Of a stretch of DNA of 64,000 nucleotides, positions 7,233 to 44,211 are shown one piece after another. Position 1 is the stretch's first letter. Every line of letters starts with the position of its first letter. The position numbers and the translations under genes were made by a program. The stretch is from a virus, in the IMG/VR virus record IMGVR_UViG_3300006028_000001, positions 33,470 to 97,469 of that record. The stretch is one strand, 5' to 3'. The notes beneath the pieces were generated by a model, which saw only the letters and a list, made by a program, of their open reading frames with translations, was not told the origin of the DNA and did no database searches.

Positions 7233-10200
7233 GTGGACGACATCACCCTGCTGCTCGTGCTGGAGGCGCGGGACAAGGCCACCCAGATCCTCGACACCAT
7301 CACCAAGCGCGTCAACGGATACGGCGACGCCACCAAGGCTGCCTCCGCGCAGGCCAGCAGGAGCGCCACCGAAATCGAGGCCGCCAACACCCGCGCGGCC
7401 GCGGCGTCCGCCTCCTACGACCGGGCCACCAAAGCCAGCGCCGAAGCACAGGCCGGACTCAAAGACGCGATGCTGGCGTCCAAGGCCGCCCAACTGGAGG
7501 CGGCGGCCGCGGCCCGGGAAGGCTCCGCGTCGGTCGCCGCCGCGCAGAAGCTGGTCACCGAATCAGCCGACGCCGAAGAGGCCGCGCTGGTTCGGGTGCA
7601 GAAGGCCGAACAACTGGCCGCCACCCGGTCCAAGGAGTTGGCCGAGGCGCAGGCCGCCACCGCCGCGAGCGTGGAGAAGGGCGGCAGCGCACTCAAGACC
7701 GCCGGGGTCGCGGCCGGCGCCACCGCCATCGCCGTCGGATACATCGGCGTCAAATCGATTGAGGCCGCCGCCGACTACCAGTCGTCGACAACCCGGCTGG
7801 TCACCTCCGCCGGGGAGCAGCAGTCCGCGCTCGATTCGGTGCGGCAGGGCATGCTGCAGATGGCCGGTCAGGTCGGCTACTCGACCGACGCCCTGTCGAC
7901 GGCCATGTACAAGGTGGAGTCCGGCGGGCAGCACGGCGCGGCCGGGCTCGAAGTGCTCCGCGCCGCCGCCGAAGGCGCCAAGACGGAAAACGCCAACCTG
8001 GAAACCGTCGCCGACGCGGTCACCTCCGCCCTGGTCGACTACCACCTGAAAGCATCCGACGCGGCCACCGTCACCTCCAAGATGGTCGCCGCCACGTCGG
8101 CCGGCAAGACCACCTTCGAGCAGCTGTCCGCCTCATTCTCGGCCATCCTGCCGGTGGCCTCCGCCGCGCACGTCAGCCTGGACGACATCCTCGGCGACCT
8201 CGCGAGCATGACGGTGCACGGCATGTCGGCGCAGCAGGCCAGCCAAAACCTCGCCGACACCATCCGGCACATGCAAAACCCCACCGCCGTGCAGTCGAAA
8301 GAACTAGCGCTGCTGGGGATGACCACCACACAGCTCGCCGACGACCTGAAAACCAAGGGCCTGTCCGGCACCCTCAACGACATTTCCAACCACGTCATGA
8401 AGCTGATCCCACCCGGCTCGGACAAGGTGATCGGCAACCTGAAGACAGCGTTGAACGGGCTGAACCCGGCCGTGCGCGAGCTGGCGATGCACCTGTTCGA
8501 CGGGTCGATGACCGCCAAGCAGTACAGCCAGGCGGCGCAGGCGCTCGACCCGATCAGCGCCAAGCAGGCCCTGTCGTTCGGCACCCTGGCCGGGTCGATG
8601 CACCGAATCGGCGACCAGCAGATGACCGGTGCGCAGGTGATGCAGACCTACGGGGCGGCGCTGGCGAAGGCCACCGGCGACGCCACCGGCCTGAACACGA
8701 TGCTGATGCTGTCGGGTGAGAACGCCGGTGTGACGGCCGGTGCCATCAAGACGGTGTCCAGCGCCACGGCGGAGGCCGGCAACCACGTCAAAGGCTGGTC
8801 GGAGATTCAGGGCACCTTCAACCAGAAGCTGGCCCAGGCCAAGGGGTCGCTGGAAGCGGCGAAGATATCCATCGGCACCGGCCTGCTGCCGGCGGTGACC
8901 GCACTGGCCGGCGGCATCGTCAAGGTGATCACACCGGTCGCGTCGTGGATGGCCAAACACCAGTCCCTGTCGGCGATCATCCTCGGGTCGATCGGCATCC
9001 TCGCCGTGCTCGTGGTCGCCATCTGGGCCATCAACACCGCCCTGGCCGCGATGACCGCCATCCCGGTGGTGGCCATCATCGTCGGCATCGTCGCCGCGGT
9101 CGCAGCCCTGGTCGCCGGGGTGATCTACGCCTACAACCATTGGGGCTGGTTCAAGACTGCCGTCCTCGACACCTGGAACGCCATCAAGGTGGCGGCCCTG
9201 TTCGTGTGGCACGACGTGCTGGAGCCGGCATTCAAGGGCATCGCCGCCGTGGCGACGTGGCTGTGGGCCAACGTCCTCAAGCCGGTGTTCGAAGGTGCCG
9301 TCGCACTGTGGCGGGATGTGCTCGCCCCGGTCGTGATGTGGCTGTGGCACAACATCATCGAGCCGGCGTTCAAGGGCATCCAGATCGAAATCCAGGTCGC
9401 CTGGGCAGTCATCAGGACAATCTTCGAGTTCATCTCGGCCGTGGTCCGTGACGTGCTCGCACCGGTGTTCCTGTGGCTGTGGCACAACGTCATCGAACCG
9501 GTGTGGCAGGGCATCCAGATCGCGGTGTCGATCGCGTGGGCGCTGATCCAGGTCATCTGGGGCCTGATGCAAATCGAGATTAAGATTCTCGCCGCGATTT
9601 TCACCTGGCTGTGGCACGAGGTGCTGGAGCCGGTTTGGCAAGGCATCTCGGCGGTCATCTCGTGGGCCTGGAACAACATCATCAAGCCGCTGTGGGCGGG
9701 CATGAAAATCGAGCTGCGCCTGCTCGGTGACGCGTTCACCTGGCTGTGGCACAACCTGATCGAGCCGGTGTGGAACGGCATCCGTGACACCATCACGGCG
9801 GTGTGGAACAACGGCATCAGGCCGGTGTTCAACTTCTTCAAGGACATCATCAAAAACGACGTCGCGCCCGCATTCTCCGCCGGGGTTTCGGCGATCGCCG
9901 CCGCGTGGAATGGCGTGCTGGAGGTAGCCAAGGCCCCGGTCCGATTCGTGGTCAACACCGTCCTGAACGATGGCCTGCTCGGCGCCTACAACTGGATCGC
10001 GTCGAAGTTCGGCGTCAAACCCGACAACGTCCACGTGTCGCTGCCCGCGGGTTTCGCCGCCGGTGGCCGCATCCCCGGCGCCGACTCCCACGCCGACAAC
10101 ATGCTGGCCATGGTCGCCACCGGCGAGCACATCATGCCCACCGCGCGTACCCGCAAGTGGCTGCCGATCCTGGAGTCGATCCGGCTGCACGACCGGCTGC

Positions 10201-22834: not shown

Positions 22835-23575
22835 CTAGCGTCTCGTCTGCTGCTGCGCAGGGCGGGGAGCCGGCAGATGGTGACCCAACGCCGGAGCAAC
22901 CGTCCCAAGCAGCAGCAGCGCCGCACCGGCCGCCACCACCCCCGCCGCCTTCGTGTCCCACGACCGCTTCGGAAACAACCACCAACCCACCAACACCAAC
23001 ACCACCGCCGCCAGGGCACCGGCCCGCAACCCCAGCCAAGCGCCCAATCCGGCCCGCCACGCACCCGTCCACGCCAGGAACATCAGCGGCACCCACACCC
23101 CGGCGGCCACACCGAGGCGACGGACCGGCCGCGGACAGCGACGGGCACGCCGCCGCGTCGGCTTCGCCACCTTCACCGACTCGCGGGCTGGGCGCGCGTC
23201 CGTCGGTGCCTGCCATGGGGTTACGGCACCCTTCGCTGCGTCCCGGGCCGCACGCTGACGGCGGGCCTCTGGGATCGGGATCCGCCGCGGGTTGTCCAGA
23301 TTCTCCTCGTAATTGAAAAGCGGACGCCGCGCCCGGATCTCCGCCTTCTCGGCAGCCAAGACCGCTGGCTTGTTCGGGTACACCTCGTCCAGCACCCGCC
23401 ACAAGGTGATCGTGTCCGACCACGGCTGGGCGTACACGTGCTCCAACAACCGGGCCAGCGGCTCCCGGGCGGTTTCGCCGATGTAGCCGACCGTCTTCGT
23501 CTGGTAGTTGGTGTTCGGATCCAACACCTCGAACTCGTAGACCCGACAGTCCCTCATGATGGCGGGCTGGCTCAC
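22835..23575 (-). CDS. GIY-YIG-like domain fused to C-terminal TM helices
   Basis: VYEF...GYIGET.R...R..EH...E...I....P.FN; about three TM segments. Confidence 0.65.
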   Translation of the reverse strand: MSQPAIMRDCRVYEFEVLDPNTNYQTKTVGYIGETAREPLARLLEHVYAQPWSDTITLWRVLDEVYPNKPAVLAAEKAEIRARRPLFNYEENLDNPRRIPIPEARRQRAARDAAKGAVTPWQAPTDARPARESVKVAKPTRRRARRCPRPVRRLGVAAGVWVPLMFLAWTGAWRAGLGAWLGLRAGALAAVVLVLVGWWLFPKRSWDTKAAGVVAAGAALLLLGTVAPALGHHLPAPRPAQQQTRR

Positions 23576-26178
23576 CCCGTCACCTCCCGCGCTTCGGCCG
23601 CGCGTTCCTGCTGCCGCTCCACCTCGGCCGCCGACGGCGCCTGCGGGGCGGGCGACAGTGCCGCCAGCGCGGCCTGCGCCCGGGCCCGGCCCTTCTCAGT
23701 GACCCGGTAGTCGGTGTACTCGGTGCCCACCTTCACTCGCGTGATCAGCCCATCCGCCTCCAACCTCGATGCGGCCCGGGACAGCGTGGACGGCACCGGC
23801 GCCTTCCCCCCACCCACTGCGGTCAGCCAGGCGCGGTGGCCGAAAATCTGCGGCGAGTTGATACCCGGCGCGCCGGCGACGATCGCCAGCACCACATCCG
23901 CCGCCGGCAAGGCACCTCCCGTGGCCGGCGCCTCAACCGCCGAGGTGGCCAGCGACGTGGAGTCCTGCAGCAGGTTCGCCATCCCGTTCGGGCCTTGCCC
24001 GAGCCGCCACAGGTCCATCAGCCCCTCCCGCTCGAACACCGCCACCGTCTCCGCCGGCAGGGCGGGCGCGGTCAACAGCGGCGCGCCGTCCGGCGCGTAC
24101 AGCTGGTCGAAGACGCAGCCGTCCTCGTCGGCGCGGGTGACAAACGCCGACCGCAGCGGAACCGGGGGCGCCTCCGCCGACACGGTCAGGCACATCCCGG
24201 CCAGCCTGGGCAGCGCCGACGGCATGTAGGTGCCGGTGTAGCCGGCCAGTCGCGCCTGCTGATCGGGCATCCGGTACAGCCGCAGTCGGGTCAGGCCGGT
24301 CAGGCCGCGCAGCACCGAGTTGTTCAGATCCTGCAGGCCGCCGCCCTGGGTGACCAGCTCCGTCATCTGCGCGGCGGTGCGTTCCAGCCGCTTCTGCTCC
24401 GTCAGGGCGCCGACGAACCCCGGGTCGGCGGCTTCCATGTGGAACTCCTCCCACACGTGCCGCATCGGCGGCCCGTCCCGGTCAACGTTCCACAGGGACT
24501 GTTCGGGGCGCAGCCGGCCATGCCGGTCCCGCTGCTTGCGCGACGCCAGATGCTGCTCGCGGCGTTTGCGTTCGGCGACGATGGACCGAAGGATGACGTC
24601 CCGGTGTTCGCGGGTAACACCGATGGGGAACACCCCGACGAAGTCGGCGTAGTCAACCAGCTGCTTCGGGTCGTACAACACGTCGAAGATCCCGGCGGCC
24701 AGGTCGTTGAGGAATGTCAAGATCGTTCCTGCCGTTTTGCCCCCGCCGGTGTGCCCAACCGTGAGTCCGCCGCCGGGCTGACCGGGCACGAACGCGGCCT
24801 CCTCCACGTCGTCGCCGAGGATGGACCGTCCGGTGTGCACGTAGATGGTGCCGTCTTTGGCGATGCGCACCCCGTCGCGGCCCTTCCACCGCACCGCACC
24901 ACCCAGGGGCGCGTGGTCGGTCAGCAGCATCAGGCCGCGGTTGGCCCGGCCGTCGGGTCGGTCCACCAGGGACAGGTTTGACGAGTCGACACCAAGCATC
25001 GCGGCCAGCCATTCCCGCGACGACATCAGCGGCGGGGCGCCACCCAACCGGGCCACCAGCGCGCCCGGCTCTGATTCGATGGCGTACTCCCAGCCGATGC
25101 GCGTCACCTCCCCGGCGATGGGGGCGGTCACCTCGCGGGTTTCCTCCGCGACGATCCAGGTGCGCTTCATCAGGAATCCGGCCGGCACGGTGTCGGAGCC
25201 GGCGATCTGCGCCCAACGGGCGGCCATCCGTCGGCCCATCGCTTCCGGGCTGTCGTCCTCCACAACAACCGGCGTCGCAACGGGCGCGGCGGCGAGACGG
25301 TCCGCCTCTTCCTGCGCCCGCCGGGCCGCGTCCTCGGCGCGTTGCCGGGCCAATTCCCGCAGCCGCCGGCGGGTTTCCCACAGCTCGTCCCAGTGGCTGC
25401 GGAACACCACCCACGACGCCAAACAGCCGGACAGGATCACGACCGCGCCGTTGGGCAGGACCGGCTCCACGCCGAGCAACGCCGCCACACACAGCCACAC
25501 CCCGGCGGCAAGCACCCCGGCGGCGACCAGCCGCGCCCGGGCGCGGGCCTTGCGGGCGGCGCGGCCCACCAGCCGCTCGTGGGCGCGGATCCGTTCGGCG
25601 ACGTAGGCGGCGATGTAGGCCATCACCGCGCCGAAGGTGGCCAGCGCAACGCCGACGGCGGCGACCAGCGGCGGATCCGCGGTGGCGGCGGCAACCTCAC
25701 CGGCGAGCAGCACCCCGGCGGAGGCCGCCAGCGACGGGGCGTGTCCGCGCATGTCGGCGGCGGTGCGGCGGGCCGCCTGTTCGGCTGCGGTTTTCGCTGC
25801 CTCGACCCGCGCAGTCGCAGCGTCGACCGCACGTGCTCGGTAGCTCGCGCCGATTTCCCGGAGACGGTTCATCAGTTGCTGACGCGCGCCACCGACCGGA
25901 TTCCGATCCGACGCGTCAACCGCGAACTCCACGAGCCTCAATGGGTGTCGCGGGCAGCACGGCTCCGGGTTTTCCTCGGTTGTCGGTACCCACTGTTCCA
26001 CCTCGCAACCAGGCTCGTGGCACAGGAACAGCCGGGCGCCGATCTGCCAGTTTTCGCCGACCGGCACGTGTCGCTCACCCTGCACGAGAGTGCCGTCAGC
26101 GGTGCGCCACACGTCGGACCACTTCAGCCCCGCAGGCAGTTTCGCCTTGGGTGCCTGGGTTGGGACTGGGGTGGTCAC
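23572..26178 (-). CDS. TraB/FtsK-SpoIIIE-like DNA translocase
   Basis: N-terminal TMs; Walker A GHTGGGKT; YDPK; Walker B-like HVWEEFH; LVTQ; C-terminal winged HTH. Confidence 0.8.
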   Translation of the reverse strand: MTTPVPTQAPKAKLPAGLKWSDVWRTADGTLVQGERHVPVGENWQIGARLFLCHEPGCEVEQWVPTTEENPEPCCPRHPLRLVEFAVDASDRNPVGGARQQLMNRLREIGASYRARAVDAATARVEAAKTAAEQAARRTAADMRGHAPSLAASAGVLLAGEVAAATADPPLVAAVGVALATFGAVMAYIAAYVAERIRAHERLVGRAARKARARARLVAAGVLAAGVWLCVAALLGVEPVLPNGAVVILSGCLASWVVFRSHWDELWETRRRLRELARQRAEDAARRAQEEADRLAAAPVATPVVVEDDSPEAMGRRMAARWAQIAGSDTVPAGFLMKRTWIVAEETREVTAPIAGEVTRIGWEYAIESEPGALVARLGGAPPLMSSREWLAAMLGVDSSNLSLVDRPDGRANRGLMLLTDHAPLGGAVRWKGRDGVRIAKDGTIYVHTGRSILGDDVEEAAFVPGQPGGGLTVGHTGGGKTAGTILTFLNDLAAGIFDVLYDPKQLVDYADFVGVFPIGVTREHRDVILRSIVAERKRREQHLASRKQRDRHGRLRPEQSLWNVDRDGPPMRHVWEEFHMEAADPGFVGALTEQKRLERTAAQMTELVTQGGGLQDLNNSVLRGLTGLTRLRLYRMPDQQARLAGYTGTYMPSALPRLAGMCLTVSAEAPPVPLRSAFVTRADEDGCVFDQLYAPDGAPLLTAPALPAETVAVFEREGLMDLWRLGQGPNGMANLLQDSTSLATSAVEAPATGGALPAADVVLAIVAGAPGINSPQIFGHRAWLTAVGGGKAPVPSTLSRAASRLEADGLITRVKVGTEYTDYRVTEKGRARAQAALAALSPAPQAPSAAEVERQQERAAEAREVTG

Positions 26179-28329: not shown

Positions 28330-28938
28330 TCACCTGTTGTCGAGAAAATCCAGAGCCGCCCGCAGCAACGGAGGCTGCGGCCCGTACAGCCACCCACCAA
28401 CCCGGTCCGCCACATCCCGCTCAAGTTCCGCGAGGCTGCCGAACCGGAACCAGGCGGCCTCCCGTGCGTCGTCACCCGCCACCACCGGCAGCCGCGCCGG
28501 AACCGCCAACACCGCCACGGTGGTGCACATCCACGCCTCGTCGGTGTTGCGCGGATCGTGCGCGAACCCGGCCCACACCACCTGCGGCGCCACACCCGCC
28601 AGACTCAGGCCGGTCTCCTCGGCCAGCTCCCGCAGCAGCGTCTCCCCCGCTGACTCACCCGGTTCGACACGGCCACCCGGCACCGCCCAACCGCCGCCGT
28701 CCACCCGGTTGATCAGAAGAATCCACCGCTGCCCAGGTTCGTTCGCGACCACCACCGGGTCGGCGGCCTGGTTTTCACCCCACAGCCGCAGCCAGCCACG
28801 ACCCGCAATCCCGATACGCTCGCAAGGGTTGACCGGGCGGCCGTCCACGACACCGAACGGGACAATCGCAGCCGCCAGCCGTGGGGCGAAGTCCACCTGT
28901 GTCGGGTCGTCCGGGTCGACGTACGGCTGGCTGCTCAC
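28330..28938 (-). CDS. Nudix hydrolase, NUDT9/ADP-ribose pyrophosphatase-like
   Basis: Canonical box GRVEPGESAGETLLRELAEETGL; GENQAADPVV, DPRNTDEAW, AGDDA. Confidence 0.9.
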   Translation of the reverse strand: MSSQPYVDPDDPTQVDFAPRLAAAIVPFGVVDGRPVNPCERIGIAGRGWLRLWGENQAADPVVVANEPGQRWILLINRVDGGGWAVPGGRVEPGESAGETLLRELAEETGLSLAGVAPQVVWAGFAHDPRNTDEAWMCTTVAVLAVPARLPVVAGDDAREAAWFRFGSLAELERDVADRVGGWLYGPQPPLLRAALDFLDNR

Positions 28939-29707: not shown

Positions 29708-30790
29708 TCAGTCGGCGGTCGCGGCCGACACGAACTCGCCGGTCGCCCCAGCCGTGTGCAGCGTGTCCTGCGCGTCCTGCGCCGGCTTCAACCCCGCCTC
29801 CGCCGCGGCGACATGATCCGAGGCCGCCGCAGACGCATCCGACACGTTGGACACATGCCGGCCAAGCTGCGCGGCCACCGCGCCCGCCTCATCCAGCGCC
29901 TGCCGGGTGGCTGCGGTGGCGCCAGCGGCGTTGGCCCGCTCCGACGCCGCCGTCACCGCACCGTCCAAGGCGGCACGTGCCCCGCCCATCTGGTCGTTCA
30001 GATCCTGGATCCGCGCCAGATGACCACGGATGGCGGCCAGGTCGGCCACGACCAGATCCAGGTTGGTTTCCCCCGTAGGCGCGCCGGCCGCCGGGGTGGC
30101 TGTCGATGTGGGCATGGTTCCTCCTGCGTTTTTTGCGGTTGTGGTGTCAGTAGTTGGTTCCGGCTGCGGTGTGCCGGTCGGGTCTTCCTCACCCGCGGCC
30201 CACGGCGGCGGGGTGGGCGCCGCCTCCGGCTCGGGTTCTGGATCCCACTTCACCGGCGGCGTTACCTCCGGCTGGTCACCGGTGGACTCCGGCGGCACGA
30301 CGCCTTGGGGTTGCTCGTCACCCGGCCTGGTGCGGGCCACCTGCCCGGCGGGGGCGCCGGCGCGGCGGGCCTGCTGCGCCGCGACCCACCCCGCACGGAA
30401 ACCGGCACCGAAACGCCCACCCGCCCGGTAGGTGCGATCAGCCGACACAATCAGCCGCGCCCACCAGCGCCGCGCCGCCGAACCGGCACGCACCGCCCAC
30501 GACGGCTGCGCGGGACGCTTCGCCGGATCCGCCCCGTCGCGCCACCACTGCCGGCGGGCCTGCCGCCACGCCGCACGCTGCGCCCGGTCGTGATCCAGCC
30601 ACGCCCGATGATCCGCCACCGACTGGCCCCAGCCGTCCCCGTCGGAGCCGCCCTGCCGGCCCGACCAGGCCCGCTCAACACCCACCGCCAGCGCCGCCAC
30701 CAACACCCCGGCACCACCCAGGCACAACGCCAGAAACGCCATGAACCCCAGGGCGGCAACGTCTTCCTTCGCCTCGTGCTGGCCGCTCAC
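29708..30790 (-). CDS. Putative transfer-module protein (TM, Arg/Trp-rich region, Pro linker, C-terminal helical hairpin)
   Basis: Architecture like accessory proteins upstream of actinomycete TraB; internal AGGAGG-ATG at 30115. Confidence 0.55.
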   Translation of the reverse strand: MSGQHEAKEDVAALGFMAFLALCLGGAGVLVAALAVGVERAWSGRQGGSDGDGWGQSVADHRAWLDHDRAQRAAWRQARRQWWRDGADPAKRPAQPSWAVRAGSAARRWWARLIVSADRTYRAGGRFGAGFRAGWVAAQQARRAGAPAGQVARTRPGDEQPQGVVPPESTGDQPEVTPPVKWDPEPEPEAAPTPPPWAAGEEDPTGTPQPEPTTDTTTAKNAGGTMPTSTATPAAGAPTGETNLDLVVADLAAIRGHLARIQDLNDQMGGARAALDGAVTAASERANAAGATAATRQALDEAGAVAAQLGRHVSNVSDASAAASDHVAAAEAGLKPAQDAQDTLHTAGATGEFVSAATAD

Positions 30791-31620
30791 CGGACACTCA
30801 CCGTCGTGGCGTGCTGCAGGCCGTCATGGGCGTGTTGGCTGACCAGCCCCACAAACAGGGAGCCGAACAGCACCAGCAGCGGCAGGCCGTACGCCAGAAA
30901 CGCCCGCACCCCCGCGTCGGGGATCTTGTCTTTGATGTCGACCAGTGCGGCGACCAGCAGGGCCACACCGAGGGCACCCAGCACGATCCGCACCATCAGC
31001 ACCGCCCACGGCGGCAGGTAGTGGACGGCCATGCCGTCGGCGAACGCCACCAGCGGGATCGTCACGACGCCGGCGAACAAGGACACCGCGGAGGCGAACC
31101 ACTTCCACGCCTTGCGGGCCGTCTTGCCGGCCAACGCAGCCTTGACGATGCGGTGCGCGTACACCACCGTGATCGCCGCCATCACGGCGGCGGTCGCGCC
31201 GGCACCCAGGCTGCGCGGATGCGACAGGATCGCCCACACCGCCTGCCAGCCGGCCGGCAGCATCGTTGGCACCCACAGCGCTGCCTTGCGGGCATCCTCG
31301 TCGGGTACCTTGTCTGCCACATCGCGGATCAGCGGCACCAGCAGCGCCAGCGCATGCCAGCCCAGCCACAGGGCGATGATGCCGCCCACCCCGGCGATGA
31401 CACCGCCGATGCTGCCAGTCAGCGACGTGGCCCAGGCGACGACACCGATCAGCGCCCAGCAGAGCACCAGTCCGCAGATTGCGGTGACGATGAACGCCAC
31501 CCACAGCAGCAGCGCCGACTGGCGCACCGCCGGCAGGATCTTCGCCCGGCCTACCGTCAGCACGATCAGCACACCCAGGACGAGGGCGATCTGCAGGTGA
31601 TAGGTCACGATCCAATTCAT
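30787..31620 (-). CDS. Polytopic membrane protein with internal duplication
   Basis: About eight TMs; DVADKVPDEDAR / DIKDKIPDAGVR repeat; GAAAGGGG RBS. Confidence 0.7.
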   Translation of the reverse strand: MNWIVTYHLQIALVLGVLIVLTVGRAKILPAVRQSALLLWVAFIVTAICGLVLCWALIGVVAWATSLTGSIGGVIAGVGGIIALWLGWHALALLVPLIRDVADKVPDEDARKAALWVPTMLPAGWQAVWAILSHPRSLGAGATAAVMAAITVVYAHRIVKAALAGKTARKAWKWFASAVSLFAGVVTIPLVAFADGMAVHYLPPWAVLMVRIVLGALGVALLVAALVDIKDKIPDAGVRAFLAYGLPLLVLFGSLFVGLVSQHAHDGLQHATTVSVR

Positions 31621-31669
31621 GTCTAGCCCCCTTTCCAGGGCGTGTGCGCGCAACTGCGCGCGGGGTTGG

Positions 31670-33294
31670 TCAGTGCACGACGCAGCCGGCGGCCACGGCG
31701 AGAACAAGCAGGGTCAGGGCAACCCCGGCGCGGATGCGGGTGGCCACCGCCAACTGGACGAGCTGCGCGAGGCTGAACACGGCCAGCCGGAACATGCCGG
31801 CCACCGTCGCGGCCACCCACGCGGCCGTGTTGCTGGTCTCGCCCGGGCCTGGAAACACCTGCCGGGCCACCACCGCGATCGGCTGCGGCGACTGCGACAA
31901 CTGCCACGAGCCGCGCACCGCCGCCTGGGCATCCCGCAGATGCGGTGACACAAAGTTAGCGACCTTGGGGGCAGGCTTGACCTTGGCAACCGGCCGATCC
32001 GCTGGTATCACGCGCGTGTGAACAGGTGTGCACGTGGCATCCGGAGCGGTCGGCGGCCGATCCGCCGTTTCGGCGGCCGTTTCCGGCGCACGCACGCAAC
32101 CCTGCAACCCGTCACCGGCGGTGACGTGGCGGCTGGTTCCGTTGACGGTGACAGTCATGACCCGGCCGCCCGGTTCAACCCGTCAGCCAACTCGATCAGC
32201 CGGTCGGCGAGGTCGTGACGGCCGTCGTCACCGGCCCGGTTGGATTCGGCCAGCAGCCACCGCCACGCCTGCCACAAACGATCACGACCGGCAGCCTTGT
32301 CGCGGGCCGGGATTCTGGCGACAAACCAGTCCCGCCGCTTCGCCGCAGCGGTGTTTGCCCTGGTCACAGCCCCCATTGGCGGATCTCCTCCTCGCTCGGC
32401 GGATCCGGCAACGTCCACCGGAACAGCTCCCGGCCGGTGGCGCGGCCGTCCTCATCGGCGGCGAACACCGCGAACTCGAACTCGTGCCACCGATCCAGCG
32501 GCGCCCGATCGGCCCGGATGACCCGCACCAGGTACCGATTCAGCAGGTCACGGGACTGGGCCAGGACAAACGGGTCACGGTCGTCCAGGTCCAGCAGCAC
32601 CAGCACCGGCACGTCGTCGCGGTCGATGCGGCGACCGTTGCGCCAGGCGTGCAGCAAGTAGCGGCGCAACATCAGGCCAGCCCCCCGGTCAGCACGAAGC
32701 CGAGCAGCCCGATCAGGCCGCTGACCAGGAAAATCAGCCCCATGGCGATCAGCAGCGGCTTGGTTTGCCGATCGCGGTAGACGCGGAGCGCGCCGTCGGA
32801 CCGTTCCATCACGTACCGTCCCCGGACGTCTCAAACGCCAGGCGAGGTGCCGGGACGGGTCGTCGGCGACGCACCTGCGGCACCATCACCGGCCGCACGC
32901 CCCCGCCGGTACCGCCCGGCCGCCACATCCAGCGCTGCCGCAGGTAGAAGGCCATCGGGGCGAGTGCGGGTGCGCCGGTGGACACCACCAACGCCCACGC
33001 CACAGCACCCAGCCGGGGATCCATCGCGGTGGCGAACCCGGCCGTGACCAGGAACAACACCCACACGATGATCCGCACAGCGATCGCCGGGGCGGCCGGC
33101 ACGGCGGTGCGCCACAGGTTGGTCCACCAGCGGGCGGCCAGCATCACCAGGCCGATGAACACCCCTGCCAGGGTGGCGAGGGCCTGCGCCTTCAGGGTCG
33201 GCACGGTTTGCGCGATGACCCGGTGCCAGATGAACACGAACAGCAGGTCCCGGGCGATCGTGGCGACCGCGCCGACAAGGATCCGCTCAGACAT
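31670..33294 (-). CDS. Five small genes, three membrane-associated (31670-32158, 32155-32376, 32364-32672, 32672-32812, 32809-33294)
   Basis: Coupled overlaps; hydrophobic segments; co-oriented with the traB-like gene. Confidence 0.6.
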
Positions 33295-33305: not shown

Positions 33306-34619
33306 CTAGTTGGCGCCGGCGCGGGCCAGTGCCCGGTCGGTCGGTTCGTCGTCGGTCGCTTTGAGGTCGGTGCCGGCCCGGTACGCCTCGACCGCCTTGT
33401 CGGCGCGCTGCTTCGACCAACCGGTGGCGGTGCGGATCTGCCGGATGCTGTCGGGCAGCTGGTCGCCGTACCGGGCACGCAACGCCCGCGCGTTGGCGAC
33501 CGCCGCCGGCTCAGACCCGACCACGTGCAGCCGGGGCGACCGGGCAACCGGTCGGGCGGACGGCTTGGCGGCCGGTCGGGTGGTCGACGGGCTGTTGGTC
33601 GGTGCTGGCCCGGGCGGTTGGTGGGTGGTCGGTTGGGCAACCGACTGGTTCGGCTCGACTGCGGATTCGCCGGTGGTCGGCTCGGGCGCGGTCGAGTGAT
33701 CGGCCGCCTGGTTGGTTGCCTCGGGCGTGGTGGTCGGCTTCACCGGATCGGTCTTCTTCGCGGCGCGCCGGTCGGCCCGCGCCCGGTGCCACGCCGCATA
33801 CCGCGCCCGCGCCTCGTCCGTGGTGGCGGCCGGCTCCCACGACACCAGATACATGGTCACCAGCCAGCGCACCGGGTGCAGCAGCTTCGCCTGCGCCGGC
33901 AACTTCGGCAACGCAGGATCCAACTGGCCAGCCGCGCGCATCGCCACCCGATTGCGCCAGCGGGAACCACGCGACCACAGGAACAGCGCCGACCCGGACA
34001 TGCCGGCCAGCAGCCACGACGTGATGGTGGGCAGGTGCCGGTAGGTGGTCCACCAGTGGATCGCCGCACCCGAGGCGGCCACGTAGCCGGCCATGCCCAG
34101 CCGCAGCATCCACACGGAGTCGCGGGCCAGCAGGTGCTTGTCGTACAGGTCCATCAGGTAGGCGGCGCCACCTTCGGCGCAGCACGCGACGGCGACGCCG
34201 AGAGCAAGCCCGGCCAGGTACCCGACGCCGGCGTGGCTGGCCAGCCATTGCGCGTCGGAGCCGGCCAGCGCCTGAACGAGGGCACCGCCGACCACGTCGG
34301 TGACGGCGATGGTTTGCAGCACGAACGCGGTGCCGAGGGCGGCGACCGGCGGCAGGTACCGCAGCCGGTCGGTCGACCGCTTCGGCTTGGTCGGTCGGGT
34401 GCCGGTCGGCTGGTAGGTGGCGGCCAGTTCAACCGCCCGGTCGGAGGTGGCCCGCAGCCGTTCGATGCGCGGGCCGAGACCCGACCAGTCCACGAACCGC
34501 GGCGTGCCGACCGGGTCTGGTCGGTCGGGCGTCGTGGGGGCCGACCGGGTCAGGGTCGACCAGGCGCGGCGGAGCCGACCGGGGTGGTCGGCTGCCGGGG
34601 TGGTCGGGTGGTTGGTCAC
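33306..34619 (-). CDS. DUF2637/Spd-like membrane protein with C-terminal HTH
   Basis: Four-TM core, AGQLDPALPKL...HPVRW, Pro/Thr linker, SIRQIRTATGWSKQRA HTH. Confidence 0.65.
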   Translation of the reverse strand: MTNHPTTPAADHPGRLRRAWSTLTRSAPTTPDRPDPVGTPRFVDWSGLGPRIERLRATSDRAVELAATYQPTGTRPTKPKRSTDRLRYLPPVAALGTAFVLQTIAVTDVVGGALVQALAGSDAQWLASHAGVGYLAGLALGVAVACCAEGGAAYLMDLYDKHLLARDSVWMLRLGMAGYVAASGAAIHWWTTYRHLPTITSWLLAGMSGSALFLWSRGSRWRNRVAMRAAGQLDPALPKLPAQAKLLHPVRWLVTMYLVSWEPAATTDEARARYAAWHRARADRRAAKKTDPVKPTTTPEATNQAADHSTAPEPTTGESAVEPNQSVAQPTTHQPPGPAPTNSPSTTRPAAKPSARPVARSPRLHVVGSEPAAVANARALRARYGDQLPDSIRQIRTATGWSKQRADKAVEAYRAGTDLKATDDEPTDRALARAGAN

Positions 34620-36177: not shown

Positions 36178-37623
36178 ATGAGCCGGCAGCCAGCCAACAC
36201 CACCGCCAAACCCGCCCTGCGCGCGCTGCGGCTCGCCGCCAACCTCTCCCAAGCCGAAGTAGCCGACCGCATCAACGAGATGGCCGCGAGACGAGGAGGA
36301 TCCCGCGGCGGCGTTGACGCCAACATGGTCAGCCGCTGGGAACGAGGGCTAGTCACGCCTGGCCCGCTGTACCGCCGACTACTCGCCGAGCTGCACAGCG
36401 TCACCGTCGACGACCTCGCACTTGCCCTCCCCCACGACCACATCGAAGGCCCGACCGCGGAGGACCTCCTGATGGCCGACACCGAAATCGTCGAAGACCC
36501 GCGGGTGTTACGCAGCCAAGACGGCTGGCGCGCCACCCGGCGGGTGCTCAACGCGAACCGGCTCATGCTCAGCCAGGTCGCCGCCGGCCTCTACCCCGAC
36601 AGTGTCGGGCTGGCCAACACCGGCCTGATCGCATCACCTGAGTGGATCCCCGCTATACCGGTCGAGATCGACACGATTCAGTTGACGCGCCTCGCAGCCA
36701 CCCCGCCGCCGGCCCTGGACGGCACCGAACCTGAGTCGCTCAACGTGCGCCCCTGCGCCACCCTCACGCGTCCGTACGCGCGGTACAGCCAGGCCATCCG
36801 CGACCTGGACCACCCGCGGCTGTTCGAGAACCGGCCGGCGTGGCGCCTCCTCGACGTGGACTGGGGCAACCGATCCATGGCGTTCGGCGACACCTGGTTT
36901 TTCGCCGCGGTCGACGTGAACGAGGTCCTCGCCCACGAAGTCGCCTACGTCCACCTCGGCGACGAACCGAGCCAGCCCACGCGTGCGACGCCGATGCGGG
37001 ACCTGCCCTACCGACGACTCGTCGACAACCCGTTCGACCTGACCCGACGACCGGTGATGCCGGCGATCTCCACTCTCACCATCCGCGGCGGCTCGTCACC
37101 CTCGTTCATCCTGCACCGCCGCGACCCCAAGTCGGTGGCGATGGCTGGCGGCATGCTGCAGGTCATTCCGTCGGGGATCTTCCAAGCGTCGTCGCTGCAT
37201 CCGGCCGCCGTGCGGGAGGACTTCTCGCTGTGGCGCAACATCCAGCGGGAGTACGCCGAGGAGCTGCTGGGGTTCGCCGAGCATGACGGCGACGGGCAAC
37301 CGATCAGCTACGCGACCGAGCCGTTTGCGTCGATGGACCGCGAACGCGCGGCCGGTCGGATCCGGATCTGGTGCCTCGGGGTGGCACTGGATGCGCTGAC
37401 CCTCGTCGGCGAGATCATGACGGTTGCGGTGGTGGCGCCGGACCTGTTCGACCGGATCGCCGCGGACTTCGTCGACGTGAACGATGAAGGGACCGTGGTG
37501 AATGGCCGGTTCGCGTTCACCGAGCAGGCAGTGGGCCGGGTGCTGCGCAGCGGCCGGATGGCGCCGGCTGGGGCCGGGTGCCTGACGCTGGCACTGCGGC
37601 ACCGCGGGATGCTGCTCGCCTGA
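36178..37623 (+). CDS. XRE-family HTH fused to a divergent Nudix-like domain
   Basis: LRALR...LSQAEVA...VSRWERG; FILHRR...IPSGIFQ...IQREYAEELLG; GGAGGAGG RBS. Confidence 0.75.
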   Translation: MSRQPANTTAKPALRALRLAANLSQAEVADRINEMAARRGGSRGGVDANMVSRWERGLVTPGPLYRRLLAELHSVTVDDLALALPHDHIEGPTAEDLLMADTEIVEDPRVLRSQDGWRATRRVLNANRLMLSQVAAGLYPDSVGLANTGLIASPEWIPAIPVEIDTIQLTRLAATPPPALDGTEPESLNVRPCATLTRPYARYSQAIRDLDHPRLFENRPAWRLLDVDWGNRSMAFGDTWFFAAVDVNEVLAHEVAYVHLGDEPSQPTRATPMRDLPYRRLVDNPFDLTRRPVMPAISTLTIRGGSSPSFILHRRDPKSVAMAGGMLQVIPSGIFQASSLHPAAVREDFSLWRNIQREYAEELLGFAEHDGDGQPISYATEPFASMDRERAAGRIRIWCLGVALDALTLVGEIMTVAVVAPDLFDRIAADFVDVNDEGTVVNGRFAFTEQAVGRVLRSGRMAPAGAGCLTLALRHRGMLLA

Positions 37624-38316: not shown

Positions 38317-39118
38317 CTACTCCTCCCCGCCCACCACGGCCGCGAGGCTGCCCTCCTCGCGTGCCCGTTCCCAGTACTCGCGGCGCATGTCGTTGGCCTC
38401 CAGTTCGGCCGCGCGGGCGGCGAGAAAGCCGATCCGCGCCCGGGCGCACAGCCGGTCGGTGCGATTACGGGCGCGCAGGCCGTAGAGGCTGGTGCTGGTG
38501 ACCGTCTTGATGAGTTCGTCAACCAGGTCCGGGATGCTGTCGATGTCGGTCTGCGACCGGTCGGGCAGGGCGGGCGGTTCGATGTACTTGTTGGCAGCGC
38601 TGGTCATGATGCTGATCTCCTCGGTGGGTTTGCGGGTGTCAGACGGCTTCTCCGCCGCCCATGCGGTACTTCTCCACGGCCTCCGGGATGGTGGTCCGCG
38701 GATCCTTCATGAACGGCAACAGCAGCCGAAGCCGCCGCTTCTCCGCCTTGTGCGCTTCGACCACCTGTTTGACGTTCTCGGCCTGCAACGCGAGATGCGC
38801 GACGGCGTCCTCCCTGTTGGCGTACCGGAGCCGCACCCGCCGACCGCCGCCGAGCCGCCAGATCGAGTCATATACCGCCGGCTCACCGGAGAACAGGTCG
38901 GTCTGATAGTCGTTGACCGTCAGGCTGGCCCGCCGGTCGTCGGCGCTCTGCGCGAGACCGGCCGCGAGTTCGTCGAGCAGCTCGTCGTCGGCGCCCGCAT
39001 CAGTCAGTTCGAGGCGGATCTCTGCGGTGACCTCGGCCATGTCGAACCGTCCGGGCCGGTCGGCGATCCGGTCGTAGACCGCCAGCGCCATCTTGCGGTA
39101 CCGGGAGTGCGCCCTCAC
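38317..39118 (-). CDS. Two hypothetical proteins (38317-38607, 38639-39118)
   Basis: SD motifs and GTGA coupling; protein-like composition. Confidence 0.65.
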
Positions 39119-39969
39119 AGCTGCCTCCCCGTCGATTCAAGGTGATCCGCGATGCTGACCAGCAGGCCGGCAACTCCGCGCAGGCCATCCGGCTTGAACA
39201 GCTCCGGATGGACCTCGTAATCGATCCCGGCTTCATCCGCGAGCCAGGTGTCGGTCACGAACTCGATCGGATTGGGGTCGAGCAGGTTCCACAGCGAGCC
39301 GACCGCGCGGCTGAAGCCCTCACTCGCCCGGACGCGCCGCTCCCGCTCAATCACGTCCGGCTCGTCGCTGAGGTGGTCCGGCGGCGGCTGGAACGCCGGC
39401 GGGACAGGCGGGGCGGACCGAGGTACGACAGGTGCCGACGCTTCCGGCGCTTCCAACTCGTCCGGCCGCTCGTCGCCGTCAGCCTGTGACGGTTGCGGCT
39501 GCGCAGTGTCCGCAGCCGGGATCAACTCGTCCGGCTCCAGTGCCGCCTCGGTGGGCTGTTCGCGCTCCTGGCGGGTCTGCCGGATGGCGGCGGCAGTCGG
39601 TTTTCCGTCGGTCCGCTCGACGGTCTCCTGCCAGACGTCTGCGCGCTCATCCTCGTGAACCTTGGCCAGTTCGCGCGCCTGTCCCTCGTTTCCGGGCGGC
39701 GGCACCGCGATCTTGTCTGCAATTGCAGACACGACCTGGGCGGCGGCCATCAGTTCGTACGCCCGCGGCCGGCTGATCGACCACCGGTCGACGCAGTAGT
39801 CCTCGAAGGTCGCGAACTCAGCCCGATACAGCCGACTGTCGCGGATGGTCGTCAGCGCGTTGCCGACCTCAAGGAAGGTCTGCATGCCGCGCTCGATCTT
39901 CCCCTCGCATTCGGCGAGGGTGTCCCGCTCGGCGACAGTGAGCGGGTGGGTCAACTGGTCGGTGGACAT
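39115..39969 (-). CDS. Phage DNA-binding protein (DUF3102-like N-terminus)
   Basis: FLEVGNALTTIRDSRLYR..F.TFEDYC..RW.ISR.RAY.LM. Confidence 0.65.
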   Translation of the reverse strand: MSTDQLTHPLTVAERDTLAECEGKIERGMQTFLEVGNALTTIRDSRLYRAEFATFEDYCVDRWSISRPRAYELMAAAQVVSAIADKIAVPPPGNEGQARELAKVHEDERADVWQETVERTDGKPTAAAIRQTRQEREQPTEAALEPDELIPAADTAQPQPSQADGDERPDELEAPEASAPVVPRSAPPVPPAFQPPPDHLSDEPDVIERERRVRASEGFSRAVGSLWNLLDPNPIEFVTDTWLADEAGIDYEVHPELFKPDGLRGVAGLLVSIADHLESTGRQL

Positions 39970-43416: not shown

Positions 43417-44211
43417 TCAGAGTCCTTCCGGTGGCAGCGCGCGCATCAGCTTCCGCGCGCTGATGCCGCACTCTGCGGCGGCCTCGGAGATGCCGTGGGT
43501 TCCGGCGCGCATGAGGGCGAAGGCACGTTCCAGCGTGGCTGGGTCGATCTCCGTGTCCCGTGTGCCGCCGATCGCGACACGGGGAGGTGTTGGCGGGATG
43601 GGGCGGGACGCTGCCCTGATCAAGGTCTTCAGGGGAATGCCGCACATCTTCGCGGCGTCCGCGAGCGAGTGGGTTTCCAGCAACGCCAGGGCACGTTCAA
43701 CCGGGTCGTCGCGCTTGGCGTCGTCAGCCGTGCCGCGAAGCGGCGACGGATGCGGCGCCCTTTCATTCTTTCTAGGAACGTGACGGTTACCGACGTGTCG
43801 GTAGACCGACGTGTCGGTTCCTGACACGTCGGTGGAAGTTGGTGACATATCCGCAGGTCGCGCCGACGTGTCAGTTTCCGACGTGTCGGTTCTTGATGCG
43901 TCGGTTGGGCAGTCCCGGATCTCCACCTCGGTGTGCCACTTGCCGTCTACGTCGTTGGTGCGGCGGTACCGGACGTAGCCGGCCTTCGCGAGCTCCGCCA
44001 TGGCGTTGCGCATCGCGCGGAAACCCTCGGACGCGTCGCCAGACAGCCGGGCGGTGGCGACCAGCTTGTCCACGGTGGTCTCCCACCCGTCGCGGTAGGA
44101 CAACAGCTCGGCAAGCAACCCCTTGGCGCGCCAACTGATCCGGTGGTCCTGGAGCGCGGCGTTCGCGATCGGGGTCCAGCCGCCGGTGGATTGAGTTCGG
44201 ATGATCCGCAC
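43417..44211 (-). CDS. Phage replication initiator (N-terminal HTH, internal iterons)
   Basis: WTPIANAALQD.RISWRAKGLL..LLS...GW...ELAKAGY; TDTS repeats. Confidence 0.8.
   Translation of the reverse strand: MRIIRTQSTGGWTPIANAALQDHRISWRAKGLLAELLSYRDGWETTVDKLVATARLSGDASEGFRAMRNAMAELAKAGYVRYRRTNDVDGKWHTEVEIRDCPTDASRTDTSETDTSARPADMSPTSTDVSGTDTSVYRHVGNRHVPRKNERAPHPSPLRGTADDAKRDDPVERALALLETHSLADAAKMCGIPLKTLIRAASRPIPPTPPRVAIGGTRDTEIDPATLERAFALMRAGTHGISEAAAECGISARKLMRALPPEGL
43761..43905. repeat. Iteron array plus AT-rich patch: probable replication origin
   Basis: CCGACGTGTCGGT-like units at 43790, 43806, 43821, 43863, 43878, 43893; TTTCATTCTTTCTAGGAA at 43761-43778. Confidence 0.7.

Follow-up and report, generated by a model that had tools for sequence, protein, structure and literature searches.

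A gene for a membrane protein in the 97-kb genome of a tailed soil phage is crowded with copies of one short word, and the locus raises the question of what keeps the word there and what, if anything, reads it. We analyzed a window of 64,000 nucleotides from this genome (positions 33,470 to 97,469 of IMG/VR record IMGVR_UViG_3300006028_000001), and the coordinates below are those of the window.

A crowded word in the linkers of a membrane-protein gene

The gene and its parts, in coding order, are as follows.

33306 to 34619, minus strand: gene for a 437-aa membrane protein, SpdB/DUF2637-like by architecture (open reading frame and translation)
34367 to 34615, minus strand: N-linker array, with CCRACC 10 times in sense and 4 times in antisense orientation (coding-strand GGTCGG)
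33750 to 34364, minus strand: conserved TM core, aa 86-290 (AlphaFold model, alignment)
33335 to 33775, minus strand: C-side array, 13 sense CCRACC and 2 antisense copies
33375 to 33506, minus strand: HTH-like domain of three helices at the C-terminus, aa 372-415, putative reader of the array (model, alignment)

The GTG start of the gene overlaps the stop of the upstream gene (GTGA), and an identical 437-aa protein is recorded as P0001. From its N-terminus, the protein runs through a disordered segment (N-linker), four long TM helices and a second disordered segment (C-linker) to an HTH of three helices at the C-terminus. In the AlphaFold model, residues 1-48, 55-58, 60-76 and 299-368 have pLDDT<50, helices occupy residues 86-290 with the four long ones at 86-222, and the HTH-like domain is modeled as helices 372-384, 392-399 and 403-415 at pLDDT 92-96, the third of which is WSKQRADKAVEAY.

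The original prediction had called this protein Spd-like. Its architecture, operon context and protein-language-model similarity agree with that name: the features of the SpdB/DUF2637 type are present (about four TM helices, a C-terminal HTH and an operon with a TraB-type pump, from model and synteny), and an Atlas feature search, which scores protein-language-model similarity and serves here as a lead only, returned DUF2637 and SpdB_N clusters at 0.87-0.90. Family assignment did not follow: neither the protein nor any of 22 relatives matched Pfam PF27080 (SpdB_N) or PF10935 (DUF2637) at E<=1, and no Pfam or NCBIfam family was found for the protein. The whole protein had no significant match among PDB folds; for the C-terminal domain there was no significant fold or family match, and Foldseek gave weak local HTH matches alone. 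Searches of GenBank phages and PLSDB plasmids by tblastn with the membrane protein and with the pump described below returned no match.

Since the gene lies on the minus strand, the coding-sense word is CCRACC, with CCGACC as its core and approximately R-N-CCGACC-R as its extended form. A motif search placed 13 plus-strand copies of GGTYGG at 33335, 33339, 33365, 33550, 33574, 33597, 33616, 33627, 33631, 33675, 33710, 33732 and 33770, and 10 more at 34367, 34389, 34393, 34404, 34439, 34519, 34523, 34586, 34602 and 34610, with none on that strand between 33776 and 34366. These are the counts, and the empty core, that had been obtained by eye for 33335-33775 and 34367-34615. Eight copies in the opposite orientation (33417, 33517, 33989, 34288, 34481, 34507, 34541 and 34575) bring the array to about 31 sites, 23 sense and 8 antisense, over 1.3 kb. 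Of the 13 C-side sense copies, ten fall within the disordered linker (aa 282-357) and the other three beyond the HTH, in the tail (aa 417-428); the TM core has no sense and two antisense copies. The arrays lie in segments of pLDDT<50.

Counted per 500 bp, the word forms two peaks of 13 and 10 copies, with a maximum of 4 elsewhere on the same strand of the window, and the same two peaks are the top two clusters in the whole 97-kb genome. An expectation of about one copy per 900 bp had been assumed, close to the one per 820 bp per strand given by dinucleotide shuffling; outside the gene, the word actually occurs about once per 600 bp. The sense copies occupy frames 0, 1 and 2 in the numbers 8, 9 and 6 (encoding PT, x-D/N-x and x-R/Q-P), so the reported spread over different reading frames holds. 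In the N-linker array there are three inverted pairs, CCGACC-N5-7-GGTCGG, with a 34-bp period (34498-34592; TRF, period 34, 2.9 copies), which is not a multiple of 3. A 13-nt string, CCGACCACCCCGG, is present twice, 16 nt apart and in two frames, and overlapping CCGACCGACC is found at four places in the gene.

Selection at the DNA level, here and in relatives

The enrichment is kept by selection on the DNA itself, as the original prediction had proposed: all four null models were exceeded, and the rare codons CGA and CAA are recruited to form the word. For the whole gene, the 23 observed copies compare with 3.1±1.7 after dinucleotide shuffling, 4.6±2.0 after codon shuffling, 10.6±2.4 after synonymous resampling with the codon usage of the genome and 14.0±2.2 after synonymous permutation within the gene (P<0.0005 each). 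The N-linker has 10 copies against 1.6 (dinucleotide), 4.2 (synonymous resampling) and 5.7 (synonymous permutation), and the C-side part 13 against 1.9, 5.8 and 8.3, respectively. As a post-hoc control for the choice of word, CCGACC was observed 19 times, against a best count for any hexamer under synonymous permutation of 11.4±1.8 (maximum 17). In a genome control of 38 long open reading frames, P<=0.005 was reached only in the array gene and in a frame of the tape-measure gene that is the shadow of a true DNA repeat.

Given the protein sequence, 30 sites are possible, of which 23 are realized. All four Arg-Pro pairs use CGA, which makes up 5% of Arg codons genome-wide and 11% of those before Pro, and two of three Gln-Pro pairs use CAA. 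Pro-Thr pairs account for 8 of the 23 copies; together with the hexamer control, this frame and k-mer analysis, which had been suggested as a check, shows that Pro-Thr codon pairs do not explain the enrichment. CCGACC is realized at 19 of 24 permitted sense sites and 7 of 10 antisense sites, and such similar rates in both orientations fit recognition of double-stranded DNA. Outside the gene we found neither enrichment nor strand skew of the word, in the phage or in flanking host DNA. A genome-wide polarity of the KOPS kind was rejected, as the word there merely follows the coding strand and composition.

In related genes the arrays consist of other words (CGGACA, CGTACA, CGGATA, CGTCTC and CCTCAC), and with a motif-blind array finder the top cluster of each locus fell in this gene. 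In L001, CGGACA fills 23 of 26 permitted sites (synonymous-permutation null 5.5±1.9); in L014, 18 of 24 are filled (null 5.2±1.7). CGTCTC fills 23 of 30 permitted sites in L025 and a further 16 of 21 in reverse, and in L028 the figure is 18 of 31. The ratio of sense to antisense copies is 18:0 in L028 and 8:0 in L027. The presence of arrays of different words in related genes indicates that the DNA-level array is real and conserved among them.

A TraB-like pump and the candidate readers of the word

The array gene is part of a module conserved in large actinophages and prophages of Micromonosporaceae, which comprises the HTH membrane protein, more membrane proteins, an FtsK-fold TraB-like pump with a winged helix and a small conserved protein. 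In the window, the module and its surroundings include the following.

23572 to 26178, minus strand: TraB-like DNA translocase, 868 aa (translation, profile and fold searches)
22835 to 23575, minus strand: 246-aa protein directly after the TraB-like gene, kept in 6 loci
30787 to 31707, minus strand: 306-aa polytopic membrane protein, in the module of 5 loci (tblastn, blastp clustering)
28330 to 28938, minus strand: Nudix hydrolase in the same minus-strand block (NCBIfam Nudix models to E 4.6e-08, all below curated cut-offs)
36178 to 37623, plus strand: Xre-type HTH protein, 481 aa, divergent from the block (PF01381 HTH_3, 25.5 bits vs cut-off 23)

The pump has a Cys-rich beta domain at its N-terminus and TM helices; its motor is of the FtsK fold, with Walker A GHTGGGKT followed by DPK, and a winged helix lies at the C-terminus. 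A six-frame search of the genome with PF01580 gave no match, although the partner pumps of L007 and L005 score above the cut-off. The conclusion drawn from that negative, that the genome has no TraB, was overturned by profile and fold searches: the alignment profile has FtsK 2iuu as its best PDB match (E 0.0035) across the Walker A-DPK stretch, and Foldseek with the model (pLDDT 80.5) retrieves the FtsK motors 6t8g, 6t8o and 2iut at E about 1e-12, as well as TcpA and EccC. Residues 796-842 have weak MarR-type matches. The expectation of a TraB-type pump with a winged helix in the same operon is thus borne out by fold and not by Pfam. In the 246-aa protein, a GYIGET..R..EH..E..N block resembles GIY-YIG by eye; this protein carries a TM segment at its C-terminus and has no match in Pfam or NCBIfam. 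Synteny of membrane gene and pump is seen in L001/L019, L005, L007 and L016, and pump and array-bearing gene are paired again in L001, L005, L007, L016, L025, L027 and L028. Plasmid partition centromeres have short repeats in either orientation, such as heptad arrays, bound by a small centromere-binding protein and next to an NTPase of the ParA, ParM or TubZ type; an array of short repeats is present here, and the scanned module proteins include no partition NTPase.

The array is probably a cis site of this TraB/Spd-like module in complete tailed-phage genomes. Our preferred reading, to which we give a probability of roughly 0.45, is that it is a docking site for the C-terminal HTH of the membrane protein itself and a putative tether of phage DNA near the pump. 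About 31 short putative docking sites would be written in cis into the linker codons by choice of codon and residue; in the disordered linkers the protein would tolerate almost any sequence. The membrane protein's own HTH is the most likely reader; with numerous copies of the anchored protein attached to the gene that encodes them, the phage DNA would be held at the membrane beside the pump. We infer that protein occupies the array, that the binder is this HTH and that the tether would serve DNA spread, transfer or segregation.

The words and the third helices of the HTH bear on this choice. Helices of the class G-CS-xxRA(I/K)AA go with CGGACA only (L001, L002, L007, L014), the RAREA/RAIEA class with CGGACA plus CGTACA (L008, L009, L012, L013, L015), RASAA with CGGATA (L003), CSEPRAKQ with TGAGCA (L016) and G-WS-KQRAD, that of the window, with CCGACC. 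Whether homologues swap motif together with HTH had been suggested as a check: words are indeed swapped, and they do not track the winged helix of the TraB-like pump but are tracked better by helix 3 of the gene's own HTH. Of the two binders named at the outset, TraB and the protein's own HTH, the second thus fits better. Some observations weigh against the own HTH as reader. The loci behind the covariation are few and phylogenetically related, and HTH and array lie in one gene and would be co-inherited anyway. L028 has an unrelated HTH (STKTISRWLK) in a different membrane-protein family, yet carries CGGACA, and in L004 the gene and an HTH are present while the array is missing and the surroundings contain no pump. 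P0005, P0007 and P0008 have another helix-3 class (GKWSAALKAH) with linkers that are CCGACC-compatible by peptide proxy only; the closest relatives, P0002-P0008, were all judged by this proxy. The C-terminal domain, as noted, resembles no known fold or family significantly. Sense orientation dominates, which a symmetric tether would not require.

Our second choice, which we consider unlikely, is that the array serves as the module's clt, read by the C-terminal winged helix of the pump for loading, in the way that TraB of pSVH1 and TraA of pWTY27 use direct repeats of 7-9 bp. The operon does contain a pump with the FtsK fold, TM segments and a winged helix, pump and array gene are paired in the seven loci named above, and in L004 the array is missing along with the pump. 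The word length of 6-8 bp, the predominance of one orientation (18:0 in L028, 8:0 in L027) and spacings of 7-8 and 11-13 bp resemble clt repeats (PMC3583192). However, the predicted recognition helices of the window pump (STLSRAASRLE) and the L001 pump (STISRAAKALE) are nearly the same while their words differ; conversely, L001, L007 (TRTVRDALKVLR) and L028 (HTTIGHACKRMS) have CGGACA in common despite unlike helices, and L027 and L028 have similar helices and different words. This comparison covers a small sample in which the helix was assigned by alignment and model only. The array also lies 8 kb from the pump gene and has 31 copies over 1.3 kb, whereas the repeats of known clt loci number 3-9, span 50-200 bp and are found at tra or adjacent to it (PMC3583192).

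It is improbable that a third factor, either a candidate phage regulator of the palindromes at 43790-43900 or a host DNA-binding protein, reads the words as a site of silencing, nucleation or titration. Five to six CCGACGTGTCGG palindromes in a divergent intergenic region (43790-43900) share the half-site CCGAC, and the recurrence of CGGACA in modules with unrelated or distant pump and membrane-HTH proteins (L001, L007, L028) would fit an outside reader. Against this, the available flanks of the relatives have no palindromes matching the local word, the word is neither enriched nor skewed outside the gene, and fine-scale variants of the word go with the gene's own HTH.

Selection on the mRNA, with sense/antisense hairpins controlling translation, decay or co-translational membrane insertion, is very improbable. 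The folding energy of the N-linker RNA is -138.8 kcal/mol (z = -3.8 vs dinucleotide shuffles; z = -3.3 for the C part) and perfect hairpins exist, such as GCCGACC-ACCCC-GGTCGGC. Yet the C-side array has 13 sense and just 2 antisense copies, and the L028 and L027 arrays have no pairing partner at all, so that most copies cannot pair mutually. RNA hairpins were rejected as the cause on this ground, in spite of the strong z-scores.

A functionless by-product of low-complexity Pro/Thr/Asp/Arg linkers, codon bias or replication slippage is close to refuted: the linkers are indeed disordered and rich in Pro and Thr, for which CCG and ACC are the favored codons, and overlapping CCGACCGACC occurs at the four places mentioned, but these causes are ruled out as a full explanation by the synonymous nulls, the rare codons and the genome-wide control, and in addition the relatives' words need rare codons (ACA, GGA) and are realized at 73-88% of permitted sites, copies also fall at synonymous or conservative positions of the conserved core, and TRF gives short degenerate repeats only.

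We return to docking by the protein's own HTH. If it is right, dual coding is seen here in an extreme and clean form, with about 30 putative docking words in three frames exactly in the disordered parts of the protein, and with all copies exchanged together for another word from one relative to the next. A further reading, which we hold only tentatively, is that large tailed actinophages of a whole class possess a DNA-translocation module of plasmid type, with a self-encoded, rapidly re-specified centromere overprinted on the linker codons of the membrane-anchored HTH protein; the TraB-like pump would then carry the phage genome across hyphal cross-walls or from hypha to hypha as naked dsDNA, with no need of virions. 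The comparison of the top hexamer with synonymous permutation offers a signature for similar sites elsewhere. The pump of the module escapes Pfam FtsK_SpoIIIE and was found by fold only.

Comparison with known systems

A literature search for GACCCGGA returned nothing informative, and the comparison is with systems known from plasmids and from phage lambda. SpdA2 of pIJ101 (Streptomyces lividans) binds palindromes within its own open reading frame (PMC4170104, Thoma et al. 2014); the site, sps, is a 12-bp palindrome in 1-3 copies that acts in cis on segregational stability (PMC4170104). As in the window, a protein of a TraB/Spd-type module has sites inside its own coding sequence that also encode a peptide motif, binding being a candidate property here. 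SpdA2, however, is small and soluble with an N-terminal DNA-binding region, whereas the window protein has four TM helices and a C-terminal HTH, and 1-3 palindromes contrast with a 6-8-bp word that recurs about 31 times across 1.3 kb and three frames. The window protein has no sequence similarity to SpdA2, and its gene has neither SpdA homology nor the 12-bp palindrome CGTCACGTGACG; architecture and word differ.

Among the clt loci of Streptomyces plasmids, that of pSVH1 has 8-bp repeats read by helix alpha-3 of TraB and that of pJV1 has nine 9-bp repeats (PMC3583192, PMC4447253). The clt of pWTY27, four copies of TGACACC that reach 16 bp into coding sequence, is read by TraA (PMC3583192, PMC4447253). 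Short GC-rich words, mostly in one orientation, on an element with an FtsK-like pump and a C-terminal winged helix are common to these and the window. The window array differs in having more copies over a longer span, in being wholly coding, in lying 8 kb from the pump gene, with no array at the 3' end of that gene, and in a word that does not covary with the winged helix of the pump.

SpdB2 of pSVH1 binds dsDNA, reportedly non-specifically, and copurifies with TraB (PMC4447253); SpdA2 and SpdB2 are the precedents for our preferred reading. Actinophage SpdB/DUF2637 homologues were earlier suggested to aid the spread of phage DNA (PMC4447253), and the array makes this older idea directly testable. 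Like SpdB2, the window protein is a four-TM membrane protein in one operon with a pump; unlike in the window, no site array has been described for SpdB2, and the window protein has no Pfam SpdB_N or DUF2637 match.

The O protein of lambda is a replication initiator, with neither a membrane anchor nor a DNA pump. Its sites, the four 19-bp iterons of ori-lambda, lie inside its own gene, in the part encoding the interdomain linker, and the candidate docking sites of the window protein would be placed likewise, within the linker-coding part of the gene for the protein that may bind them.

Word counts and nulls in the membrane-HTH gene

The source record, a 97,469-bp IMG/VR virus rated complete by CheckV, has 70 bp in common between its two ends, and the assembly is therefore circular. 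The window corresponds to its bases 33470-97469. In the left part of the window lie genes for the tail, among them a 1276-aa tape measure, and a minus-strand block of genes that overlap one another, at ~22.8 to 36.0 kb, contains the word array. The features discussed are:

22835-23575, minus strand: 246-aa protein directly after the pump, with a GYIGET..R..EH..E..N block and a C-terminal TM segment
23572-26178, minus strand: 868-aa pump, with TM helices, Walker A GHTGGGKT followed by DPK, and a winged-helix-like C-terminal end
33306-34619, minus strand: 437-aa membrane-HTH gene, assigned from GC3 and the protein on record

An ORF on the plus strand across 33306-34619 was rejected as a shadow frame, GC3 and the recorded protein both placing the true gene on the minus strand. 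GGTYGG thus reads CCRACC in the coding sense. The counts of GGTYGG in the original prediction, 13 + 10 on the plus strand with 0 in the core between, are exact. Another 8 copies lie in the opposite orientation. Elsewhere on the same strand of the window no 500-bp stretch exceeds 4 copies, and both peaks are also the top word clusters of the whole genome.

The 23 copies in the gene fall in reading frames 0/1/2 as 8/9/6. Dinucleotide shuffling predicts 3.1 copies and codon shuffling 4.6; with the protein fixed, 10.6±2.4 are expected when codons are redrawn from genome usage and 14.0±2.2 when synonymous codons are permuted within the gene. Because the word was picked post hoc, the count of the most frequent hexamer served as a further null: under synonymous permutation it was 11.4±1.8 (maximum 17), and CCGACC reaches 19 in the gene. 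Enrichment due entirely to Pro-Thr pairs, the reading named beforehand as fatal to the prediction, fails, since such pairs account for only 8 of the 23 copies and the nulls are exceeded. Of 30 sites permitted by the protein sequence, 23 are used. CGA encodes Arg in all four Arg-Pro pairs; genome-wide it accounts for 5% of Arg codons, and for 11% where Pro follows. The 13-nt CCGACCACCCCGG is present twice, 16 nt apart, encoding PTTP and ADHPG, and inverted pairs CCGACC-N5-7-GGTCGG occur three times on a degenerate 34-bp period.

When the same test was applied to 38 long ORFs genome-wide, only the membrane-HTH gene and the tape-measure antisense frame stood out, the latter lying over a true DNA repeat. 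These TGGCTGTGGCAC-type repeats, inside the tape-measure gene at 9258-9744, are also the reason that the antisense shadow ORF scores under synonymous permutation. Two further clusters were seen: 6 of the 8 AGTTCG copies of a 20-kb stretch fall in 38402-39752 (array finder, p ~1e-8), and at genome 15.77-15.98 kb, 17.5-17.7 kb before the window start, AAGTCACG (six copies) and CGTGACTT (five) occupy ~200 bp that could be an origin or operator array.

In the AlphaFold model of the membrane-HTH protein, residues 1-48, 55-58, 60-76 and 299-368 are disordered, four long helices span 86-222, more helices extend as far as residue 290, and residues 372-415 form a three-helix domain predicted with confidence. 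Array positions coincide with the disordered segments and the C-terminal tail, and the conserved core has no sense copies.

Arrays in the relatives' loci

Local hexamer clusters were sought motif-blind, locus by locus. In almost every locus (L-numbers) the top cluster lies inside the membrane-HTH gene, with a word that varies by locus.

Words found in the relatives' loci
CGGACA: L001/L019, L002, L007, L009, L011, L014, L028
CGGACA plus CGTACA: L008, L012, L013, L015 (weaker in L009)
CGGATA: L003
CGTCTC / GAGACG: L025
CCTCAC(C): L027
TGAGCA: L016
TGACAC-type: L005

Copies occur in all three frames and both orientations, and writing these words takes rare codons, ACA and GGA among them. Realised over permitted sites, set against a synonymous-permutation null, were 23/26 in L001 (null 5.5±1.9), 18/24 in L014 (5.2±1.7), 18/31 in L028 (8.4±1.9) and, in L025, 23/30 (5.1±1.9) with 16/21 in reverse (8.1±1.6). 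Conserved core positions also bear copies: T-D-T is written ACG GAC ACC in CGGACA loci, and the corresponding place in the window bears the window's own word in antisense. The bases on either side of the word carry little information, giving a word length of 6-8 bp; favoured copy-to-copy spacings are 7-8, 11-13 and 24 bp. In L025, L027 and L028 the array-bearing gene comes from other membrane-HTH families, and the rule is therefore wider than one protein family. There is strong support for DNA-level selection on the word, both in the window and among independent relatives.

On the Actinoplanes sp. CA-252034 chromosome (L004:11000-18000), a solitary membrane-HTH gene with its HTH lacks both array and pump and precedes an island of 56-62% GC; it is probably an element remnant.

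Candidate readers of the word

These observations are best explained as a protein-docking array, which may serve DNA tethering or transfer. As its reader we favour the membrane-HTH protein's own HTH, with a probability of about 0.45. Within the main family, the third helix of this HTH tracks the word at several levels, in a comparison of few loci that are related to each other.

Helix 3 and word
G-CS-xxRA(I/K)AA: CGGACA only; L001, L002, L007, L014
RAREA or RAIEA: CGGACA and CGTACA; L008, L009, L012, L013, L015
RASAA: CGGATA; L003
CSEPRAKQ: TGAGCA; L016
G-WS-KQRAD: CCGACC; window

L001 and L007 have the same helix 3 and the same word, and their pumps are only ~25% identical to that of the window (tblastn segments). 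HTH and array, being linked in one gene, would co-inherit anyway. L028 has CGGACA despite an unrelated HTH, and in relatives with another helix-3 class the linkers are also CCGACC-compatible (peptide proxy).

Another possible reader is whatever binds the 12-bp palindrome CCGACGTGTCGG, which has the half-site CCGAC in common with the word. Five to six copies, with variants CTGACACGTCGG and CCGACGTGTCAG, lie at 43790-43900 in a lower-GC divergent intergenic region and look like an operator array.

That the pump's winged helix reads the word is less probable: its predicted recognition helix is nearly the same in the window and L001 (STLSRAASRLE and STISRAAKALE) whereas the words differ (CCGACC and CGGACA), L027 and L028 likewise pair similar pump helices with different words, and CGGACA is common to L001, L007 (helix TRTVRDALKVLR) and L028 (helix HTTIGHACKRMS). 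This mismatch across loci argues against the pump, which comes second to the protein's own HTH as the probable reader.

The module and known systems

The membrane-HTH gene, a ~310-aa membrane protein, the pump and a ~250-aa protein after it form a module that recurs both in Micromonosporaceae chromosomes and in viral contigs of ~50 to 130 kb (CheckV-complete records: 95 and 119 kb). Pfam and NCBIfam gave no match for the membrane-HTH protein or 21 relatives, Foldseek gave no significant match for it, and GenBank phages and PLSDB plasmids gave no match to it or to the pump. A protein-language-model search puts the core of the membrane-HTH protein next to clusters of DUF2637 and SpdB_N (0.87-0.90); we treat this as a lead only.

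PF01580 (FtsK_SpoIIIE) misses the window pump in both six-frame search and protein scan; partner proteins in L007 (Dactylosporangium) and L005 (Micromonospora) pass its cut-off. The pump was detected only through its family profile against PDB and its predicted fold: FtsK is the best PDB match of a profile from 22 relatives, and the predicted structure (pLDDT 80.5) hits FtsK motor domains with E ~1e-12, then TcpA and EccC. A 1353-aa pump relative, P0166, carries PF14528. Directly after the membrane-HTH gene of L003, a 1043-aa ORF (L003:10953-14081) has a LAGLLDTDGS block and is thus probably a pump-like gene interrupted by an intein that contains a LAGLIDADG endonuclease. The post-pump protein occurs at that position in 6 loci (alignment A5); its block is GIY-YIG-like by eye, and Pfam has no match for it.

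In the literature searched we came across no account of large word arrays written over linker codons. SpdB2 is a pore-forming protein that copurifies with TraB and binds dsDNA without sequence specificity, and its homologues on actinophages have been noted as possible helpers in phage DNA spread (PMC4447253). Clt loci are 3-9 direct repeats of 5-9 bp in 50-200 bp, at or adjoining tra, bound by TraB or TraA (PMC3583192, PMC4447253); the window array is unlike them in size and place and does not covary with the pump. Among known systems SpdA2 of pIJ101 comes nearest to a self-site in coding DNA: its binding to 12-bp palindromes within its own ORF affects plasmid stability (PMC4170104), although protein, word and copy number all differ from those of the window array.
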